Positions 99 through 42,068 of a DNA stretch of 42,068 nucleotides are shown piece by piece. Numbering within the stretch: position 1 is the first letter of the stretch; every line of letters begins with the position of its first letter. The translations under genes and the position numbers were made by a program. The notes beneath the pieces were generated by a model, which ran no database searches, was not told the DNA's origin, and saw only the letters and a program-made list of their open reading frames with translations. Where the stretch lies: contig JAVVGK010000001.1 in NCBI GenBank assembly GCA_032249175.1, forward strand, positions 1-42,068, given 5' to 3'. Source of the DNA: Candidatus Hydrothermia bacterium. Its GTDB lineage: Bacteria > Hydrothermota > Hydrothermia > LBFQ01 > DSFT01.

Positions 99-123
99 CT
101 TTAAATTTTAAAGCATAAAAAGT

Positions 124-270
124 GCTTTGTCCAATAATTCTAAAATTACGATTATTTCTTATTTTCCCCACCCACCCTAAAAATAAGCCTTCCGCTTAAA
201 ACTTCGCCCCCCTTAAATTCCCCCCTAAAATAAATAATTTCCTAAAATTTTGATATTTATCAGACAAAGC
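124..270 (+). repeat. MITE-like repeat, copy 1 (internally deleted form)
   Basis: Starts GCTTTGTCCAATAATTC and ends TTATCAGACAAAGC (inverted repeat). Contains the CTTATTTT/AAAATAAG hairpin with a CCCCACCCACCCT loop and the AAGCC..GCTT hairpin. Homologous to 40771-40946. Confidence 0.8.
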
Positions 271-281
271 AAAAACTTCTT

Positions 282-7420: not shown

Positions 7421-7455
7421 AAGCCCTAATTTAAGGGTGGGTTGGGAACAAAGCC
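7421..7455 (-). repeat. Remnant of the MITE-like repeat core (AAGGGTGGGTTGGGAA)
   Basis: AAGCCCTAATTTAAGGGTGGGTTGGGAACAAAGCC resembles the G-rich strand of the repeat core (compare 21961-22000). Confidence 0.4.
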
Positions 7456-14708: not shown

Positions 14709-15821
14709 TTATTCCTCTATTAACTCAACATTTGCTCTTGGAATAGATAAAATTTTACCATTAACCTGAACTTTTAAAATTCTTGTCTTTGATTCAGTTT
14801 CTATACTTACAGGCTCAATAGGAAGCTCAACAACTCTCCCTATAAGACCAAAATAAGGCGCTCTTATAATTCTGACAAGTTTTCCAATTTTTAACATTCC
14901 ATCATCTTGATAATCACTTTCTTTTCCTTCCTTTAATGGAACAATAATTTCAGGTCTTATAACACCTGCTCTAATTTGTGTTGCACCATTTATGGAAGCT
15001 TTAAAGCTATCTAAGGATTTTAATAAATCAAATGTTCTTCTTGCCATTGGTACTTTACCAAAACCTTCGGTTATAATTATCGTTGTAGGAATGTTTTCAT
15101 TTCCTGTAATAGCAACACCAATATCATATCCAAGAATTTCCTTTATTACATAATCATCAATACCTCCTACTACAATACCATAAGCACCTCTTTCCATAGC
15201 TGTTCTTATCGTTTTAACATCAACATATGAGCCACCTATAATAATATTTCCTTCTTCATTCTCTAATAAATGCTCAACTTTTAATTCCTCATCAGGACTA
15301 CTTACTGCTACTCTTATTTTTCCTATCTTTTCTCCTCCAATTCCAAATATACCTTGAATATATGCTCCATAAGTTTCAATTTCAACACCTTCATTCTCAA
15401 ATACCCTAACAACTTTACCATCAAAATAAGCATTTATTTGAACAGGAATAGGTGGTTCTCTTAAAATTACTTGTCCTGTTATTTCAGATATATTCTCAAT
15501 ATAACCATCTATTGGTGAAATAACTGGATTTTTAAGAAGTCCAAATAAAATTTTGCTAATTGCTATACTTTCTCCCTTTTTTATCGCCTCACCTTCGGAT
15601 TTTGTTAGATATTTCTTTATTTCATTTGGACTTATTCCAAGAACTCCAGCAACATTTAAAATTACAACATTTCCAGGAATTTCTGTTTTTGCTACTATAT
15701 CTTCCGCCTTTACAAATTGACCTTCCTTTACAAGAACAGAGCCTTTAATAGGTAATTTTCTTTCCTTTTTAATTAATGTCCATCTTGAAACCTTTAAGCC
15801 AGGTGTATAGGCATATGCCAT
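14709..15821 (-). CDS. Conserved hypothetical protein (370 aa)
   Basis: Long ORF with non-low-complexity sequence. N-terminal lipoyl/barrel-sandwich-like segment. Family not recognised. Confidence 0.6.
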   Translation of the reverse strand: MAYAYTPGLKVSRWTLIKKERKLPIKGSVLVKEGQFVKAEDIVAKTEIPGNVVILNVAGVLGISPNEIKKYLTKSEGEAIKKGESIAISKILFGLLKNPVISPIDGYIENISEITGQVILREPPIPVQINAYFDGKVVRVFENEGVEIETYGAYIQGIFGIGGEKIGKIRVAVSSPDEELKVEHLLENEEGNIIIGGSYVDVKTIRTAMERGAYGIVVGGIDDYVIKEILGYDIGVAITGNENIPTTIIITEGFGKVPMARRTFDLLKSLDSFKASINGATQIRAGVIRPEIIVPLKEGKESDYQDDGMLKIGKLVRIIRAPYFGLIGRVVELPIEPVSIETESKTRILKVQVNGKILSIPRANVELIEE

Positions 15822-15856
15822 AACAAAAAGTTTAAAATTTTAAAGGTTGTTTATAT

Positions 15857-15929
15857 GCTTTGTCCAATAATTCTAAAATTACGATTATTTCTTATTTTTC
15901 CCGCACACCCTGAAAATAAGGCTTTGCCT
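15857..15929 (+). repeat. MITE-like repeat, copy 3 (half element: one end plus both hairpins)
   Basis: GCTTTGTCCAATAATTCTAAAATTACGATTATTTCTTATTTTTCCCGCACACCCTGAAAATAAGGCTTTGCC. Confidence 0.8.
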
Positions 15930-21000: not shown

Positions 21001-21602
21001 TGTAATGTTAATGCATATAAAACGATATTCATACCAAATTTTAAGGCAGTTTCTTGAACTTCTGGTGGGTCACCATGCCTATCAGTCCATCCATCAGATA
21101 TATTGCTCTCATAAGTATATAGTAAAACTAATCTATCTCCTATAAATATGCCATATGCTTTTGGAGGTTTTCCATCGTGTTGGTGAATTTTAGGTAATTT
21201 ATCAAATTTCCAATAGATATGAAAAATTGGATGACTTAAAGGAATTTCTTCAAGTTCTTTATCAGGAAAAACCTTTTTAATTTCTCTTCTAAAATGAATA
21301 TCAAGTCCATAATCATCATCTACATATAAAAACCCTCCCCTTTCAAGATATTCTCTTAAATTTTTAGCATCCATTTCAGAAAAATAGACATTTCCATGTC
21401 CTGTCATATAAATTATTGGATAATTGAAAATTTCTCTACTACTTGGTTTTACTATTGCTTGTCTTTCATCAAGGTCTATATTTATATATTTCTTTATAAA
21501 TTTTACGAGATTTGGAATAACCTCCGGGTCATTATACCAATCACCCCCACCCTCATATTGTAATCTTGCAATTTGAAATGACAATAAAAGAAATGACATC
21601 AA
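20997..21602 (-). CDS. DUF4159 domain protein (start TTG 21602 or ATG 21599)
   Basis: RLQYEGGGDWYNDPEVIPNL, YMTGHGNVYFSEMDAKNLREYLERGGFLYVDD. Confidence 0.7.
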   Translation of the reverse strand: MMSFLLLSFQIARLQYEGGGDWYNDPEVIPNLVKFIKKYINIDLDERQAIVKPSSREIFNYPIIYMTGHGNVYFSEMDAKNLREYLERGGFLYVDDDYGLDIHFRREIKKVFPDKELEEIPLSHPIFHIYWKFDKLPKIHQHDGKPPKAYGIFIGDRLVLLYTYESNISDGWTDRHGDPPEVQETALKFGMNIVLYALTLQ

Positions 21603-21647
21603 TTATTAAAATTTTAAGGCTACCCTAAAAACAAGCAACTTAATTTT

Positions 21648-21823
21648 GCTTTGTCCAATAAATAATGTTAAATAATTGATAATCAATAACTTATAAAAAT
21701 TTTAGGAAATTACTGAATTTATCGGAGGTTTATTTAAGGGGGCGAAAGTAAGGCAAAGCCTTATCTTCAGGGTGGGTGGTAAAATAAAGAAAAATAAATA
21801 GTTTTAGAATTATTAGACAATCC
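21648..21823 (-). repeat. MITE-like repeat, copy 4 (full length, G-rich strand on +)
   Basis: GCTTTGTCCAATAAATAATG ... GAATTATTAGACAATCC. Internal CAGGGTGGGTGG loop and AAGGCAAAGCCTT hairpin. Confidence 0.85.
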
Positions 21824-21834
21824 AAACAATATAT

Positions 21835-22035
21835 GCTTTGTCCAATAAATAGTGTTAAGTGATTAACTATCAATAACTTATGAAATCTTTAATGAAATTA
21901 TAGATTTTATAGGGGGATTATTAGGGGGCGGAAGCCCCCTGCCGAAAAATAGGGAACTTTAAAGCCGAAGGCTTATTTTTAGGGTGGGTGGGAAAAATAA
22001 GAAATAGTCGTAATTTTAGAATTATTGGACAATCC
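21835..22035 (-). repeat. MITE-like repeat, copy 5 (full length, with an extra AGGGGGC-GGAA-GCCCCCT hairpin)
   Basis: GCTTTGTCCAATAAATAGTG ... AGAATTATTGGACAATCC. In tandem with copy 4. Confidence 0.85.
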
Positions 22036-22070
22036 AACTCAATTTTATCCTTAACTTTAAAATTATCAAT

Positions 22071-23264
22071 ATGGAGATTATTACAAAAGAAGAAAATTAT
22101 ATTGAAATAAATGTTGGACCTCAACATCCTGCTACACATGGCGTTTTAAGAGTTATATTAACGCTTGATGGTGAAAGGATTGTAAAGGCAAAATGTAAAA
22201 TTGGATATTTACATAGAGGAACTGAAAAGCTTGGAGAAGAAAAAAACTACTATCAAATGTTAATTTACACAGATAGGTTAGACTATTTAGCACCTTTATC
22301 AAATAATTTTGCTTATGTCAGAGCAGTTGAAAAATTGTTAGGAATTGAGAATAAAATTCCAAAAAGAGCAGAATATTTAAGAGTTATATTAGCTGAATTA
22401 TCAAGGATAGCAAGTCATCTTGTTGGTGTTGGAACACATGTTATGGATATTGGTGCTTGGACATTTTTCTTACATGCATTTAGAGAAAGAGAAAAAATCT
22501 ATGATTTATTAGAGGAAATTTCTGGTCAAAGAATGAATAATACATTTTTTAGATTTGGTGGTGTTGCTGCTGATTGTCCTCCTAATTGGCTTGAAAAGGT
22601 TTATAAATGGGCTGATGAATTTGAAAAGAAAATTTGGCCAGAGCTTATGGACTTAATAGCTGAAAATCCTATATTTAAAGAAAGAACTGTTGGAATTGGT
22701 GTAATTCCAAAAGATTTAGCAATAAATCTATCTTTAACAGGACCATTATTAAGAGGAAGTGGTATTAAAAAAGATTTAAGAAAAGATGAGCCATATTCTG
22801 TTTATTCTGAATTTGATTTTGATATACCTGTAGGAAAAAATGGAGATACTTACGATAGATTCATCGTTAGAATGGAAGAAATGAGACAAAGTGCAAGAAT
22901 AATTAAACAAGCAATAGAAAAAATTCCTGATGGCGATGTTTTAATTAATGACTATAAAATTGTTCCACCACCCAAAAAAATTGTATATTCTCAAATAGAA
23001 TACTTAATTCATCATTTTAAAATTATGAGTGAAGGGTTTTTAGTTAAAGAAGGTGAAGTATATGCTGCTGTTGAAGGACCAAAAGGAGAAATAGGTTTTT
23101 ATATTGTTTCAGATGGCTCATCAAAGCCTTATAGATTTAGAATTAGACCTCCAAGCTTTATAAATTTACAAGCACTTGAAGAAATTGCTCCTGGTCATTT
23201 AATAGCAGATTTTATTGCTTTAATTGGAACAATTGATATTGTTCTTGGCGAAGTTGATAGATGA
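22071..23264 (+). CDS. nuoD: NADH-quinone oxidoreductase subunit D (49-kDa subunit family)
   Basis: NVGPQHPATHGVLR, GYLHRGTEK, DRLDYL and C-terminal IGTIDIVLGEVDR. Confidence 0.9.
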   Translation: MEIITKEENYIEINVGPQHPATHGVLRVILTLDGERIVKAKCKIGYLHRGTEKLGEEKNYYQMLIYTDRLDYLAPLSNNFAYVRAVEKLLGIENKIPKRAEYLRVILAELSRIASHLVGVGTHVMDIGAWTFFLHAFREREKIYDLLEEISGQRMNNTFFRFGGVAADCPPNWLEKVYKWADEFEKKIWPELMDLIAENPIFKERTVGIGVIPKDLAINLSLTGPLLRGSGIKKDLRKDEPYSVYSEFDFDIPVGKNGDTYDRFIVRMEEMRQSARIIKQAIEKIPDGDVLINDYKIVPPPKKIVYSQIEYLIHHFKIMSEGFLVKEGEVYAAVEGPKGEIGFYIVSDGSSKPYRFRIRPPSFINLQALEEIAPGHLIADFIALIGTIDIVLGEVDR

Positions 23265-36297: not shown

Positions 36298-36309
36298 TTA
36301 GTAAGTCTT

Positions 36310-36337
36310 AAAATTTTAAAGCATAACTTTAAAATTT
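36310..36337. promoter_or_regulatory. Back-to-back CTTTAAAATTT(T) promoter-like motifs: the minus copy drives the tRNA genes, the plus copy drives the UbiA gene
   Basis: The minus-strand motif (36310-36321) lies 12 nt from tRNA-fMet position 1. The plus-strand motif (36327-36337) has TAAAAT 9 nt before ATG 36345. Confidence 0.55.
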
Positions 36338-36344
36338 ATTACTT

Positions 36345-38143: not shown

Positions 38144-38927
38144 AAAGACTTAAAAAATCATCGGGAATAACATTTCTTATTACATTTAAAAGTTGTTTTG
38201 AAAATCTTCTAAAACTATTTGAAATAGCATAAGCTCTTGAAATTGATAAGTAGTAATTATAAAACCATTTATCTTTCAGTTTTTCAATGATAATTTTTAA
38301 ACTTTTTATATTGTTATATAAAATTTCAGGTGTTGCTTTTAATATGGCAAATTCCATAAATTGTGGAAATTTTGGCATTAAAAAAACTCTTGAATAACCA
38401 AATAATTCATAAAATTTATGATAATTTCCAAAATGCTCATCTTTATAAGCCATTACGATAATTGATGAATCATAAGGCTCATTTACAACTTCATAATTTT
38501 CTGATAAAAAATTTATAATTTCATAATCATTGGCATCATCAGGAATGTAAATTTTTATGCTATCAGGTGGGTTTATGAACTTCTTATAATCAATTGGATA
38601 GTCAATATAAATAACAAGTGTGCTATCTATGAACATTCTTAATAAAATATCCTTTTGAAATTTGTGATGAACGATAATTCTATCAACATAATTTAGAATT
38701 TCATATGCCTTTTCAAAACTATTATGCATTATAGCAATTTTACCAATTTTTTCATCTTTATATTCTTTAAAAATTTCAATATCTTTTTCATCCTCAATGT
38801 GAGCAATTAATATAAAAAAATCAAAATTATCCAAAAGGACATTTTCTTTTTGTAAATGAAATTTTAAATTTGAATTATAGTTTTTAAATTTTGGATTTTC
38901 AATTAAGTTGAGCTTTATTTTCAACAT
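38136..38927 (-). CDS. Hypothetical protein (263 aa)
   Basis: ORF track. Overlaps the ftsH 3' end by 29 nt. Confidence 0.5.
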   Translation of the reverse strand: MLKIKLNLIENPKFKNYNSNLKFHLQKENVLLDNFDFFILIAHIEDEKDIEIFKEYKDEKIGKIAIMHNSFEKAYEILNYVDRIIVHHKFQKDILLRMFIDSTLVIYIDYPIDYKKFINPPDSIKIYIPDDANDYEIINFLSENYEVVNEPYDSSIIVMAYKDEHFGNYHKFYELFGYSRVFLMPKFPQFMEFAILKATPEILYNNIKSLKIIIEKLKDKWFYNYYLSISRAYAISNSFRRFSKQLLNVIRNVIPDDFLSLFI

Positions 38928-40734
38928 GCTTTAAACCAAGAATTTCATCAAGTTCCTCACCTGTTATTGTTTCTTTCTCTAATAATAATTGAGCAACTTT
39001 ATTTAATTTGTCTAAATTTTCATTTAAAATTTTATAAGCGGTTTCTTCTGCTTCTTGTAATATATTCTTTATTTCTCTATCTACAATTTTTAGCAAGTCT
39101 TCGGAAGTTCCATTTCTTTTTACAAGTTCCTTTCCCAAAAATACTTCATCCCCTCTTGAAATAAAAATTGGACCAAGAATTTTGCTCATTCCCCATTCCA
39201 TAACCATTTTTCTTGCTATCTCCGTTGCTCTTTCTAAATCATTAGCAGCACCTGAGCTTACTTCATTAAATATAATTTTTTCAGCAACCCTTCCTCCCAT
39301 TAGAATTGCTAATTGATTTTTCAAATAGCTTTCTTCATAAAGATATTTATCTTTTTCAGGAAGAGAGACTGTAACTCCAAGAGCCATTCCCCTTGGAATA
39401 ATTGTGACTTTTTCTACTTTATCTGACTTGGATAATAATCTTGAAACAATAGCATGTCCTGCTTCATGATAAGCAACTCTTCTCTTTTCTTCATCTGATA
39501 AAATCATATTCTTTTTTGCTGAGCCCATAATGATTTTATCTCTTGCTTCTTCTAAATCTTTCATAGTTATTTTATCTCTTCCATTTCTTGCTGCTAATAA
39601 TGCTGCTTCATTTATAAGGTTTGCCAAATCTGCTCCTGAAAATCCTGGTGTCATTTGAGCAATTTTTTCAAGATCAACATCATCCGATAATGGTTTGCCT
39701 TTTGCATGAATTTTTAAAATTTCTAATCTTCCTTTAACATCAGGAAGACCAATATAAACTTTTCTATCAAATCTTCCTGGTCTTAATAAAGCAGGGTCTA
39801 ATATATCAGGTCTATTTGTTGCTGCTAAAATAACAATACCTTCTTTGCCTTCAAAACCATCCATTTCAACAAGTAATTGATTTAAGGTTTGTTCTCTTTC
39901 ATCATGTCCCCCTCCTATTCCACTTCCTCTCATCCTTCCAACTGCGTCAATTTCATCTATAAATATAATAGCTGGTGCTAATTGTCTTGCTTTCTGAAAT
40001 AAGTCTCTAACTCTTGCAGCTCCAACACCAACAAACATTTCAACAAAATCAGAACCTGATATTGATAAAAACGGAACACCTGCTTCGCCTGCTACTGCTT
40101 TTGCCAATAATGTCTTTCCAACACCTGGAGGTCCTACTAATAATATACCTTTTGGTATTTTAGCACCAAGCTTTATATATTTTTCTCTGTTTTTTAGAAA
40201 TTCTACAACTTCTTTTAAGTCTTCTTTTGCTTCTTCACAATCTGCTACATCGTCAAACCTAACATTTGGTTTATTATCTATGTAAATTTTTGCTCTACTT
40301 TGGGAAAATTCAAAAGCTTTACTTGTTCCATTAGTTATACTTCTAAAAAATATAAACCAAAACAATAAAAATAAAATAATCCAAGGAATGTAGCTTATAA
40401 ATATATCCCAAAACATATTTCTGTTCTTCGTTTTTATAATTACTCCCTTATCAATCATTTCTCTCATAAGTTGCTCATCTTTATAAGGTAGAATAGTCTT
40501 AAAAAATCTAATTTCTCTGTTTTGTATTTTTAAAGGCTCTCTAAATTCACCTTCAACTTCATTATCAGTAATAGTAATTGAAGAGACTTTGTTATCTCTT
40601 ATAAATTGAATAAATTGATTATATGTTATTTCAATTTTTGAAGCATTATTTGGATTGAAAATTGTAAAAAGTATAAAGAACGAGCTTATTATAATTAACC
40701 AAACAAAAAGTATTTGAAATAAATTTTTAGACAT
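38899..40734 (-). CDS. ftsH: ATP-dependent zinc metalloprotease FtsH (start moved to ATG 40734)
   Basis: [17 protein letters not shown], the SRH region and HEAGHA zinc motif. The first 33 codons of the ORF track run through the promoter motif and a repeat copy. [16 protein letters not shown] gives a typical TM1. Confidence 0.95.
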
Positions 40735-40770
40735 ATCTAAAATTTTAAAGTTGAAGATGTAAAAGAATAT

Positions 40771-40946
40771 GCGTTGTCTAGTAATTCTAAAATATAGATT
40801 ATTTCTTATTTTTCCTACCCACCCTGAAATCAAGCCTTCGGCTTATGAACTTCGCCCCCTTAAATTCCCCCATAAAATAAATAATTTCCTAAAATTTTCA
40901 TAAGTTATTGATTATCAAGAACTTAACATTATTTATTAGACAAAGC
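40771..40946 (+). repeat. MITE-like repeat, copy 6 (full length)
   Basis: GCGTTGTCTAGTAATTC ... TTATTTATTAGACAAAGC. Internal hairpins as in the other copies. Confidence 0.85.
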
Positions 40947-40957
40947 AAAATTATCTT

Positions 40958-41048
40958 GGATTGTCTAGGAATTCTGAAATTGCTATTATTTCTTATTTTT
41001 CCCCACACACCCTAAAAATAAGCCTTTGGCTTAAAATTTAGACAAGGC
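40958..41048 (+). repeat. MITE-like repeat, copy 7 (short form: both ends plus hairpins, central segment absent)
   Basis: GGATTGTCTAGGAATTCTGAAATT ... CTTATTTTTCCCCACACACCCTAAAAATAAGCCTTTGGCTT ... TTTAGACAAGGC. Confidence 0.8.
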
Positions 41049-41078
41049 AAAAAGATAAAGTTTTTGTTAATACTATAA

Positions 41079-42018: not shown

Positions 42019-42046
42019 GATTTGAAATTTTAAAGTGCTTAATAAA

Positions 42047-42068
42047 GCTTTGTCCAATAATTCTGAAA
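42047..42068 (+). repeat. MITE-like repeat, copy 8 (cut by the window end)
   Basis: GCTTTGTCCAATAATTCTGAAA is identical in type to the starts of copies 1-3. Confidence 0.7.

Follow-up and report, generated by a model that had tools for sequence, protein, structure and literature searches.

Correia/NEMIS elements of Neisseria are bacterial MITEs, and a preference for particular targets and for one orientation has been reported for IS903. Tn7 and the CRISPR-associated transposons recognise a sequence and insert at a set distance from it, always the same way round; they are large, multi-gene elements with 5-bp duplications, and the type V-K systems find their targets via Cas12k, which is derived from TnpB. 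MITEAba12 of Acinetobacter is also a bacterial MITE (PMC6382973), and IS903B generates a 9-bp duplication (PMC10569121). The PATEs of Haloquadratum are gene-less derivatives that greatly outnumber the TnpB elements (PMC3119063). Standalone guide-RNA elements are known, and inverted terminal repeats occur in the DDE-linked branches of TnpB, where solo TnpBs with matching ends are presumed to depend on mobilisation in trans (PMC10691335).

The repeats described here were found in the genome (1.64 Mb, 27% GC) of an uncultured hot-spring WOR-3 bacterium. They very probably form a MITE family, a non-autonomous DNA transposon that has colonised the promoters of one hot-spring WOR-3 lineage. This agrees with the preliminary description of the family as MITE-like: the repeats are small and non-coding, with inverted ends and 9-bp duplications, they are dispersed and patchy in the genus, and a longer element has the same ends.

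The repeat family and the gene-start motif

The genome-wide search proposed in the preliminary description was done with nhmmer and gave about 290 matches at 217 loci (153 single, 55 double and 9 triple), spread over more than 100 of the 179 contigs. Contig ends often fall within repeat copies throughout the assembly. Copy numbers and ages taken from this assembly, a metagenome bin, are biased, because near-identical repeats get lost when such bins are assembled. In the window (the whole stretch of DNA that was analysed, 42,068 nucleotides), the 11-mer TTGTCCAATAA, with at most one mismatch, occurred 14 times against 2.6 expected, and 14 occurrences were reached in 0 of 100 shuffles.

Full copies measure 170 or about 195-205 bp between their ends, which are 15-bp terminal inverted repeats (TGCTTTGTCCAATAA...TTATTGGACAAnGCA; also denoted GCTTTGTC-type ends) conserved to at least 90% in 81 long copies. 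Target-site duplications had escaped detection by eye and are present, both genome-wide and around a pair of copies in the window (21638-21646 and 22037-22045). Of 86 full copies, 63% had matching flanks (score of at least 8); among controls that combined mismatched left and right flanks the figure was 14%. The duplication ends 3-4 nt before TTGTCC and begins 0-4 nt after GGACAA, and is therefore a 9-10 bp duplication directly outside TGC...GCA.

The motif CTTTAAAATTT has 2044 sites in the genome, against about 440 in shuffles, and ORF starts peak 4-9 nt downstream of it. Free right ends (...TTATTGGACAAnGCA) face this motif in 87 of 102 cases (85%), with the motif pointing away, at a distance of 22-24 nt in 52 and of 13-17 nt in 29. 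A motif accompanies only 16 of the 71 free left ends, and the distances there show no peak. The placement of right ends was seen again in a sister species (G003), where 37 of 47 face the motif and the distance is 22-24 nt for 31 of them. The duplicated 9 bp lie about 10 nt upstream of the motif in the main register and about 0-3 nt upstream in the second. Insertion is thus specific for site and orientation relative to the gene-start motif. A MITE was found within 25 nt of 130 of the 516 gene-start motifs; roughly one in four leaderless-type promoters in this organism is occupied, and the family therefore likely shapes transcription and genome rearrangement in the lineage.

No conserved sequence was detected upstream of the motif at unoccupied promoters, and the 9-bp target and 10-nt linker showed only mild A-richness; the 9-bp targets vary from site to site. 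Because nothing else upstream of these promoters is conserved, the target would be recognised via the motif itself or a protein bound to it. Selection against insertion elsewhere in the very short intergenic spaces could also contribute to the precise placement. Upstream of nuoD, the motif is present in all four congeners, and three of them (G001, G002 and G004) lack a MITE there; from this comparison the motif is judged to predate the insertion.

The precise, oriented placement beside promoters had been overlooked in the preliminary description. One tRNA in the window is also preceded by the motif.

Copies in the window and tandem arrays

All eight copies and the remnant of the preliminary description were recovered within 1-2 nt of the positions given there, with exact limits drawn so that the ends read TGC...GCA. 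The copies are intergenic, as described. No ORF of at least 80 aa lies inside a copy, save a TTG-start ORF (38899-40833) that overlaps one because the mechanical TTG start extends it too far. The window was confirmed to be without a transposase.

The pair upstream of nuoD consists of copy c (21647-21824, plus strand; TGCTTTGTCCAATAAATA...TTATTAGACAATCCA; nhmmer E=4e-42), a short form of 178 bp distal to the promoter, and copy d (21834-22036, plus strand; nhmmer E=1e-46), a promoter-proximal long form of 203 bp that contains the hairpin GGGGGC-GGAA-GCCCCC. By sequence reading, the pair is flanked by target-site duplications on the left (ACTTAATTT, 21638-21646) and on the right (ACTCAATTT, 22037-22045), which are identical at 8 of 9 positions, and the 9-nt spacer between the copies (AACAATATA, 21825-21833) is the middle copy of this target site and has diverged. 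The promoter-like gene-start motif of nuoD (CTTTAAAATTA, 22055-22065, plus strand) sits 22 nt past the GGACAA of copy d, and the nuoD ATG is at 22071. Since copy d is closer to a copy on another contig (C13; 91% identity) than to its neighbour c (69-71%), it is an independent insertion.

At the start of the window, copy a (123-271, minus strand; sequence reading and nhmmer) is reduced to 149 bp by an internal deletion and lies proximal to a promoter motif (103-113) whose gene starts at 98 on the minus strand. The distal member, copy b (281 to about 445, minus strand; nhmmer 278-453), is degenerate, about 60% identical, and has lost its left end. The third pair is formed by copy e (40770-40947, minus strand; 178 bp), which is promoter-proximal and the best nhmmer match (E=1e-48), and the distal copy f (40957-41049, minus strand), internally deleted to 93 bp with both ends kept. 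A motif in reverse complement was read 23 nt from the GGACAA of copy e (40740-40750), and the flanks of this array are AAAAGAATA (40761-40769), AAATTATCT (40948-40956) and AAAAGATAA (41050-41058). A right-half copy (15856-15929, minus strand; sequence reading and nhmmer) lies 14 nt from a reverse-complement motif (15835-15845) of a gene starting at 15821 on the minus strand. The start of a further copy (42046-42068, minus strand), cut by the contig end, is likewise 14 nt from a reverse-complement motif (42025-42035). In the remnant (7421-7455, plus strand; sequence reading), GGGTGGGTTGGGAA and CAAAGC are kept and the motif CTTTAAAATTT follows.

The three head-to-tail pairs were found as first reported, and the shorter copies are, as proposed, internal deletions (149 and 93 bp) and a half form (15856-15929). 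With TGC...GCA ends the spacer within pairs measures 9 nt and not 11 as stated, the larger figure having been counted from GC to GC.

Across the genome, tandem arrays have the form X-A-X-B-X, of which GGTTAATGAT on contig C127 is a clean example. One orientation is common to all copies in 59 of 64 multi-copy arrays. The promoter-proximal copy is the more intact, scoring above the distal one in 38 of the 41 arrays compared (Wilcoxon p=7e-10) and in 23 of 30 in G003 (p=0.002). The tandem pairs are probably repeated insertions into one 9-bp target, as opposed to duplications. In the proposed history, each duplication would recreate the 9-bp target beside the promoter, so that the same site would be open to further insertion. 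As insertions recur, head-to-tail arrays would form with the newest copy adjoining the promoter, while older copies would be displaced away from it and then decay; the promoter would be left intact throughout.

Distribution in the genus is patchy, with many copies in this genome and in G003 and two in G002; G001 and G004 gave none, or short matches at chance level only. Empty sites, which the preliminary description had advised looking for in sister strains, were found between sister species at four loci: four MITE blocks of G003 correspond to uninterrupted sequence in this genome. These pairs differ from clean single-copy excisions because the filled G003 sites hold arrays with decayed members. 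Among the window loci, only the nuoD promoter could be compared between congeners, the flanking genes at 15.9 kb and 40.8 kb being non-syntenic.

The longer relative and competing explanations

A longer element with matching ends, also suggested as a target for searching, was found; it is 1.5 kb long, and its gene is TnpB-like, without a recognised transposase. This element (G000:C87:3787-5317, G000 being the present genome) has the same ends as the MITE and the duplication AGCCTTAAA, and a motif is located 23 nt from its left end, in the same register as the MITE. A second copy in the genome has the duplication GAATTGAAG. The 1.5-kb element is the full-length relative of the MITE family. It contains a single gene, whose promoter lies just within one end and whose stop codon belongs to the other, and any omega RNA scaffold would overlap coding sequence because the ORF reaches the element end. 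Both assembled copies are defective: one has no start codon and carries deletions, and the other is frameshifted. Derivation of the MITE from this element by internal deletion was considered and rejected, since similarity in local alignment was limited to about 18 nt at the ends.

The protein matched TIGR01766 (8e-16) and guided_TnpB NF040570 (7e-15; a partial match, under the cut-off). Across 33 homologues, residues D246, E309, D376 and D378 do not vary; the RuvC D-E-D triad is intact, and is kept even in homologues with 48% identity. A Cys4 motif is missing, as no cysteines are conserved between RuvC-II and RuvC-III in the 33 homologues, and the match to the TNB model is limited to its first 28 positions. 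An AlphaFold model was compared with structures using Foldseek and matched Cas12f, Cas12g, Cas12k, TnpB and Fanzor2 (E 6e-10 to 1e-5) with probability 1.00 and TM-scores of only about 0.3; a search of solved structures by protein sequence gave nothing relevant. From its sequence and model, the protein is classed as TnpB/Cas12-like and zinc-finger-less. Its family is precomputed as SSO2105_N, and a literature search returned no papers on SSO2105 or ISC1217/ISA1214. Related elements in other hot-spring genomes (WOR-3, Aquificae and other lineages) have inverted ends (GCTTTGTCGCAAT and GGCTGTTCTAAAAATC) and 9-11 bp duplications. The complete genome of Thermocrinis ruber holds six intact related elements that share 86-89% identity with the query copy, together with a mini-derivative that has a duplication.

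There are two possibilities, that a TnpB-type RuvC protein is itself able to insert DNA or that a DDE partner has gone undetected, and either answer informs the spread of TnpB genes among transposon types and programmable insertion tools. An unseen IS5/IS903-type DDE transposase is a slightly more likely candidate than the TnpB-like protein, because the ends resemble those of IS903 and the duplication is also 9 bp. Taken as a full account, that all the elements, the TnpB-like one included, are passengers moved in trans by an IS5-family (IS903-group) DDE transposase outside the assemblies has a not quite even chance. The transposase would be unbinned, carried on a plasmid or virus, or lost, and the TnpB-like protein would only aid retention, as in IS200/IS605. 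Aligned in the same register, the end TGCTTTGTCCAATAAATA and the inverted repeat of IS903B (GGCTTTGTTGAATAAATC) agree at 14 of 18 positions; IS903B was picked for the comparison among many IS families, and the agreement may reflect chance. The duplication has the length of that of IS903B, the ends GCTTTGTCGCAAT and GGCTGTTCTAAAAATC of the relatives can be read as the same general pattern, and the genus is known from fragmented bins only, in which insertion sequences are often missing.

The searches for such an enzyme count against this account. Six transposase or recombinase families, four of them DDE, were tested (PF01609, PF00665, PF01797, PF00872, PF00239 and PF13358), and none matched in this genome or in the complete T. 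ruber genome, so that the six intact T. ruber elements reside there without PF01609, PF00665, PF00872 or PF13358, and Y1 TnpA (PF01797) was found in neither genome. PF00872, PF00239 and PF13358 had no match in G003 either. PF01609 and PF13737 (the latter searched in the genus only) were absent from the five genus genomes, and none of 30 class-wide PF01609 loci carries MITE-type ends. A weak resemblance to these ends at one locus of the class (L009) came from a high-GC IS5-type element whose ends are different. In T. ruber, no other gene was found between such ends. When 185,579 species genomes were scanned for the exact 18-mer end, paired ends occurred only in a WOR-3 bin; matches in Bacteroidota and other phyla were single and unpaired. 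No protein known for 9-bp staggered insertion was found by these family searches.

It is possible, though rather unlikely, that the zinc-finger-less TnpB-like protein itself inserts the elements, acting as a RuvC-fold transposase or RNA-guided integrase with the motif as a TAM-like anchor. The gene fills the element from end to end, the usual layout of a transposase gene, its D-E-D residues are maintained down to 48% identity, and the protein family is accompanied by inverted ends and 9-11 bp duplications in WOR-3 and Aquificae as well as in further hot-spring lineages; the six families tested are absent from a complete genome with six intact copies. A 9-nt stagger that starts some 10 nt away from a T-rich motif is similar to the way in which Cas12 and TnpB enzymes cut. 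However, no TnpB relative is known to join DNA, G003 is the richest in MITEs yet has no assembled copy of the gene, and the ends, being similar to those of IS903, point towards a DDE enzyme. Recent movement in T. ruber lacks support because the copies there are only 86-89% identical to the query. The usual flank-derived TnpB guide RNA cannot explain site choice, because the 9-bp targets vary between sites. In a more specific form, which we regard as a shade less probable still, a protein of the SSO2105_N family would move the elements, reading the motif as a fixed anchor and cutting or joining about 10 and 19 nt away. If the TnpB-like protein does move the elements, a TnpB relative would serve as a site-specific transposase or integrase instead of a homing nuclease.

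It is improbable that the repeats are structured small-RNA genes or REP-like regulatory modules (terminators or insulators) selected upstream of promoters. GC-rich hairpins are conspicuous in a 27% GC genome, and the hairpin AAGCC-GAA-GGCTT is followed by a T-run, terminator-like towards the promoter. Its variants keep the pairing (AAGGC..GCCTT, about 17 copies; AAGCT..AGCTT, 4 copies), which would fit a selected RNA, although each may go back to one event that a subfamily then inherited, and the loops switch between GAA and TTC/TTT, as expected of hairpin inversion at the DNA level and unlike a selected RNA loop. Folding was better than that of shuffles on both strands (z-scores of -3.9 and -4.5), and an internal promoter-like motif was found in 44 of 166 copies. 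RNAalifold, run on the 81 long copies, was non-discriminating because it gave nothing beyond the end pairing and two hairpins, in either orientation. A known structured RNA family, named in the preliminary description as an alternative, found no match: in Rfam 15 only two tRNAs in the window reached the gathering score, and the best sub-threshold matches of 21600-22100 had E values of 0.17 and 0.7. Locus-specific 9-bp duplications, inverted ends, patchiness, empty sites and a coding relative with the same ends all demonstrate mobility. A regulatory side-effect may exist as well, but would not replace the transposon explanation.

A local segmental duplication confined to the region of the window, likewise considered at the outset in view of eight copies within 42 kb that include three tandem pairs, has practically no chance and was ruled out by the nhmmer search of the whole genome, as the 290 matches lie on more than 100 of 179 contigs and tandem partners are 69-71% identical to each other and up to 91% identical to copies elsewhere.

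Comparison with known systems

As a MITE family, the repeats resemble Correia/NEMIS elements and MITEAba12 in being short and non-coding, with inverted repeats, target-site duplications and many intergenic copies, often near promoters. Like bacterial MITEs, they descend from an insertion sequence or have ends in common with one. Unlike in Correia/NEMIS and MITEAba12, placement here is exact to 1-2 nt and oriented to one promoter motif, one target is used repeatedly to give ordered arrays, and the partner element encodes a TnpB-like protein, without a recognised transposase.

The resemblance to IS903 and IS903B, which may be due to chance, extends to 14 of 18 end positions and to the 9-bp duplication (PMC10569121), whereas no IS5-type DDE gene was found in the genome, in the genus, or between such ends where searched. 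As in IS200/IS605, a full-length relative with a TnpB-superfamily gene is far outnumbered by gene-less miniatures. IS200/IS605 elements have subterminal hairpins, insert 3' to a short, fixed word, lack inverted ends and a duplication, and need a Y1 TnpA; here, in contrast, the elements have inverted ends as well as duplications, and the search for a Y1 gene was negative. A TnpB-family gene inside symmetrical inverted ends is shared with the TnpB branches DDE-1 to DDE-6 of Altae-Tran et al. 2023 (PMC10691335), at least some members of which have a DDE gene beside them; none was present at the loci read here.

With Tn7 and the CRISPR-associated transposons the elements share insertion at a set distance and in one orientation, and Cas12k of the type V-K systems is among the structural matches of the TnpB-like protein model. 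Unlike those transposons, the longest element here is 1.5 kb, with one gene and a 9-bp duplication. MITEs as such are common. A limited literature search found no bacterial element that combines age-ordered arrays with oriented placement to within 1-2 nt of a set position next to a promoter motif.

Distribution and structure of the repeat family

The region 21648-22035, upstream of nuoD, consists of two repeat copies arranged head-to-tail (c, distal; d, promoter-proximal), each of which starts TGCTTTGTCCAATAAATA and finishes TTATT(A/G)GACAATCCA. With the ends taken as TGC...GCA, the copies in the window lie at 123-271 (-), 281 to about 445 (-), 15856-15929 (-), 21647-21824 (+), 21834-22036 (+), 40770-40947 (-), 40957-41049 (-) and 42046 to the window end (-), with a remnant at 7421-7455; every copy listed in the preliminary description was confirmed. 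The copies are intergenic without exception, and the end 11-mer occurs 14 times in the window (2.6 expected). Rfam returned two tRNAs and nothing else for the whole window, and no credible match for the region 21648-22035 alone. A separate 93-nt direct repeat (862-954 and 1074-1166, 94% identical) spans the ribosome-binding site and initial codons of two small adjacent genes.

The source genome (G000; 1.64 Mb, 179 contigs, 27.2% GC; the window is contig C1) was searched with an HMM built on seven window copies. The 290 hits, many of them at contig ends, fell at 217 loci (153 single, 55 double and 9 triple), and orientation was uniform at 59 of the 64 multi-copy loci; the MITE-like family proposed from the window alone is a real MITE family. 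In an exact-match scan covering a single genome for each species, the genome rich in MITE-end hits was a bin named 'candidate division WOR-3 bacterium'. Within the genus, the MITE is abundant in G000 and in the sister species G003 and is represented by two copies in G002; G001 and G004 gave no matches beyond chance-level short ones. Identity to the nearest neighbour among full G000 copies (median 88.6%, maximum 99%) exceeds that of best matches between G000 and G003 (median 82.5%, maximum 87.9%), which probably places most of the amplification after the split of the two species.

Full copies, measured from TTGTCC (left) to GGACAA (right), form two size classes of about 170 and about 195 bp, the longer of which has a GGGGGGC-loop-GCCCCCC hairpin. 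The stem of this hairpin is constant and its loop alternates between GAA and TTC/TTT, as would be expected from hairpin inversion at the DNA level. A hairpin AAGCC-GAA-GGCTT, with loops of GNA form and followed by a T-run, keeps its pairing in the variants AAGGC..GCCTT (about 17 copies) and AAGCT..AGCTT (4 copies). Folding was better than that of shuffled sequences on both strands (z-scores -3.9 and -4.5), conservation was uniform over the MITE length, and 44 of 166 copies carry an internal promoter-like motif facing the left end. A regulatory or RNA role is possible.

Target-site duplications and tandem arrays

The flanks of full copies were printed, and direct repeats that differ from locus to locus were found directly outside TGC...GCA (e.g. 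TTTAGAAATT, ATTTTAATAA, GAATTACTTT). A flank match score of 8 or more was obtained for 63% of 86 copies, against 14% in a control in which left and right flanks were paired across different copies. The duplicated stretch ends 3-4 nt before TTGTCC and begins 0-4 nt after GGACAA, which sets the target-site duplication at 9 bp (at most 10 bp). Four sites that are uninterrupted in G000 (C22:9632, C77:6110, C94:5028 and C13:19580) hold a MITE block in G003. Filled and empty sites thus occur between these sister species; the filled sites are arrays that include decayed members and hence not clean single insertions.

Arrays follow the pattern X-A-X-B-X, the same 9-10 nt recurring on every side (e.g. 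GGTTAATGAT on contig C127); at nuoD, the outer flanks are ACTTAATTT and ACTCAATTT and the spacer between copies is AACAATATA. The two members nevertheless differ (at nuoD, 69-71% identity between c and d, 91% between d and a copy on C13). Common flanks around unlike members fit renewed insertion at a restored target rather than tandem duplication. Among arrays of uniform orientation, the promoter-proximal copy outscored the distal one with the HMM in 38 of 41 in G000 (mean 121 vs 71 bits; Wilcoxon p=7e-10) and in 23 of 30 in G003 (p=0.002); we therefore infer that the newest copies enter beside the promoter, and that older ones are displaced and then decay. In the window, the distal members of the arrays at 123-445 and 40770-41049 are degenerate or internally deleted. 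Such ordering by age is one of three unusual features of the family.

At two different G003 loci (L065 and L111), the same MITE copy was found along with the 9-nt spacer next to it, AATTTAATC; this reflects either joint movement of two neighbouring copies or recombinational exchange of segments between arrays. At another G003 locus (L123, C2:14905-18730; compared with window 21617 and 42047), a MITE block connects the gene left of the MITE pair at 21647 with the inverted window-end gene. This junction suggests a rearrangement of about 20 kb with both breakpoints at oppositely oriented MITE copies. Further synteny breaks at MITE sites lie at 15.9 kb and 40.8 kb of the window.

A promoter-like motif beside the insertions

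The motif CTTTAAAATTT (up to one mismatch) has 2044 sites in G000, against about 440 in shuffled sequences; examples in the window lie within 22055-22073, 36298-36344, 103-113 and 40740-50. An ORF start (60 aa or more) follows within 40 nt at 750 sites, with a sharp peak at 4-9 nt. A window tRNA is preceded by the motif at about 13 nt, and the motif is therefore a transcription rather than a translation signal; by inference, its spacing is compatible with a -10-like TAAAAT and leaderless or near-leaderless mRNAs. The form sCTTTAAAATTTTC lies 4-9 nt upstream of the start codons of about 516 G000 genes, with no conserved -35 region upstream of it in that genome; widespread leaderless or near-leaderless transcription is suggested for this WOR-3 lineage.

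In G000, 87 of 102 right ends without a following copy face an outward-pointing motif, as do only 16 of 71 free left ends, the latter at no favoured distance. GGACAA and the motif are separated by 22-24 nt at 52 right ends and by 13-17 nt at 29, so the layout of the main register is 4 nt (nGCA), the 9-nt duplication, about 10 nt, and the motif. The motif is faced by 37 of 47 right ends in G003 (31 of these at 22-24 nt). It belongs to the host: upstream of nuoD it is common to all five genus genomes, three of which have no MITE there, and G003 carries at nuoD a four-member array with a duplication unlike that of G000. A MITE lies within 25 nt of 130 of the 516 gene-start motifs (25%). Because nothing upstream of the motif is conserved in unoccupied promoters, and the 9-bp target shows no more than a mild A-richness, recognition is probably of the motif itself or of a motif-bound protein. 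Insertion anchored to a promoter motif, and oriented with respect to it, is an unusual feature of the family.

A longer element and candidate enzymes of transposition

Sorting of all end-like sites on downstream sequence located a 1531-bp element (G000:C87:3787-5317; ends GCCTTGTCCAATAA...TTACTGGACAAGGC, duplication AGCCTTAAA), with a host motif exactly 23 nt from its left end. A second copy (duplication GAATTGAAG) is represented by its two ends on contig ends C16 and C134, and was found assembled on one metagenome contig. Sequence in common with the MITE is restricted to about 18 nt at the ends. The element has one ORF, with its own motif-type promoter just within the left end and its stop codon inside the right inverted repeat. 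The C87 copy has lost its start codon (ATG to ACG) and has three deletions; the second is frameshifted.

The product is TnpB-like (TIGR01766, 8e-16; guided_TnpB, 7e-15, partial), and its AlphaFold model (pLDDT 76) matched Cas12f, Cas12g, Cas12k, TnpB and Fanzor2. Hot-spring metagenomes and Thermocrinis ruber contain many homologues of 500-525 aa. Among 33 homologues, the RuvC residues D246, E309, D376 and D378 are invariant and a Cys4 zinc finger is absent; a large zinc-finger-less TnpB branch is known (PMC10691335).

Close metagenome relatives have the same ends, with 9-bp duplications; in a subfamily at 48% identity the ends read GCyTyGTCGCAAT and the duplications are of 10 bp. Six intact related elements (ends GAGGCTGTTCTAAAAATCC, duplications of about 10 bp) occur in the complete T. 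ruber genome, five being 86-89% identical to the query copy. A miniature of about 300 bp (L153, 336777-337079) with its own 10-bp duplication keeps both ends, 39 codons from the start of the gene and 40 from its end, and shows how gene-less copies can arise via internal deletion. Two TnpB-like elements (L136, metagenome contig Ga0599197_00035; L147, T. ruber) lack exactly the left inverted repeat and retain the right end, both duplication copies and an intact gene; they are one-ended copies, probably immobile. An IS5-type element in an AT-rich same-class relative (L009, G058:C42:1-1260; about 50% GC, ends GAGACCTTTGCRCG) is unrelated to the MITE and was rejected as its partner; it appears to be either recently acquired foreign DNA or a contaminant introduced by binning.

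Models for Y1 TnpA, rve, DDE_Tnp_1, mutator-type, serine recombinase and DDE_3 gave no hits in G000 or in the complete T. ruber genome, and a TnpB-like partner without a recognised transposase is an unusual feature of the family. IS200/IS605 elements have neither inverted ends nor duplications (PMC3119063). Inverted terminal repeats are carried by TnpB branches tied to DDE transposases (Altae-Tran et al. 2023, PMC10691335), and solo TnpBs with those same ends are presumed to be moved in trans (PMC10691335). An unseen IS5-type enzyme may mobilise the present elements in the same way; the bolder reading, that the TnpB-like protein itself catalyses movement, seems unlikely. Mobilisation in trans is the conservative reading because of this precedent and because of the likeness to IS903B, whose repeat resembles the MITE ends at 14 of 18 positions and whose duplication is likewise 9 bp (PMC10569121).
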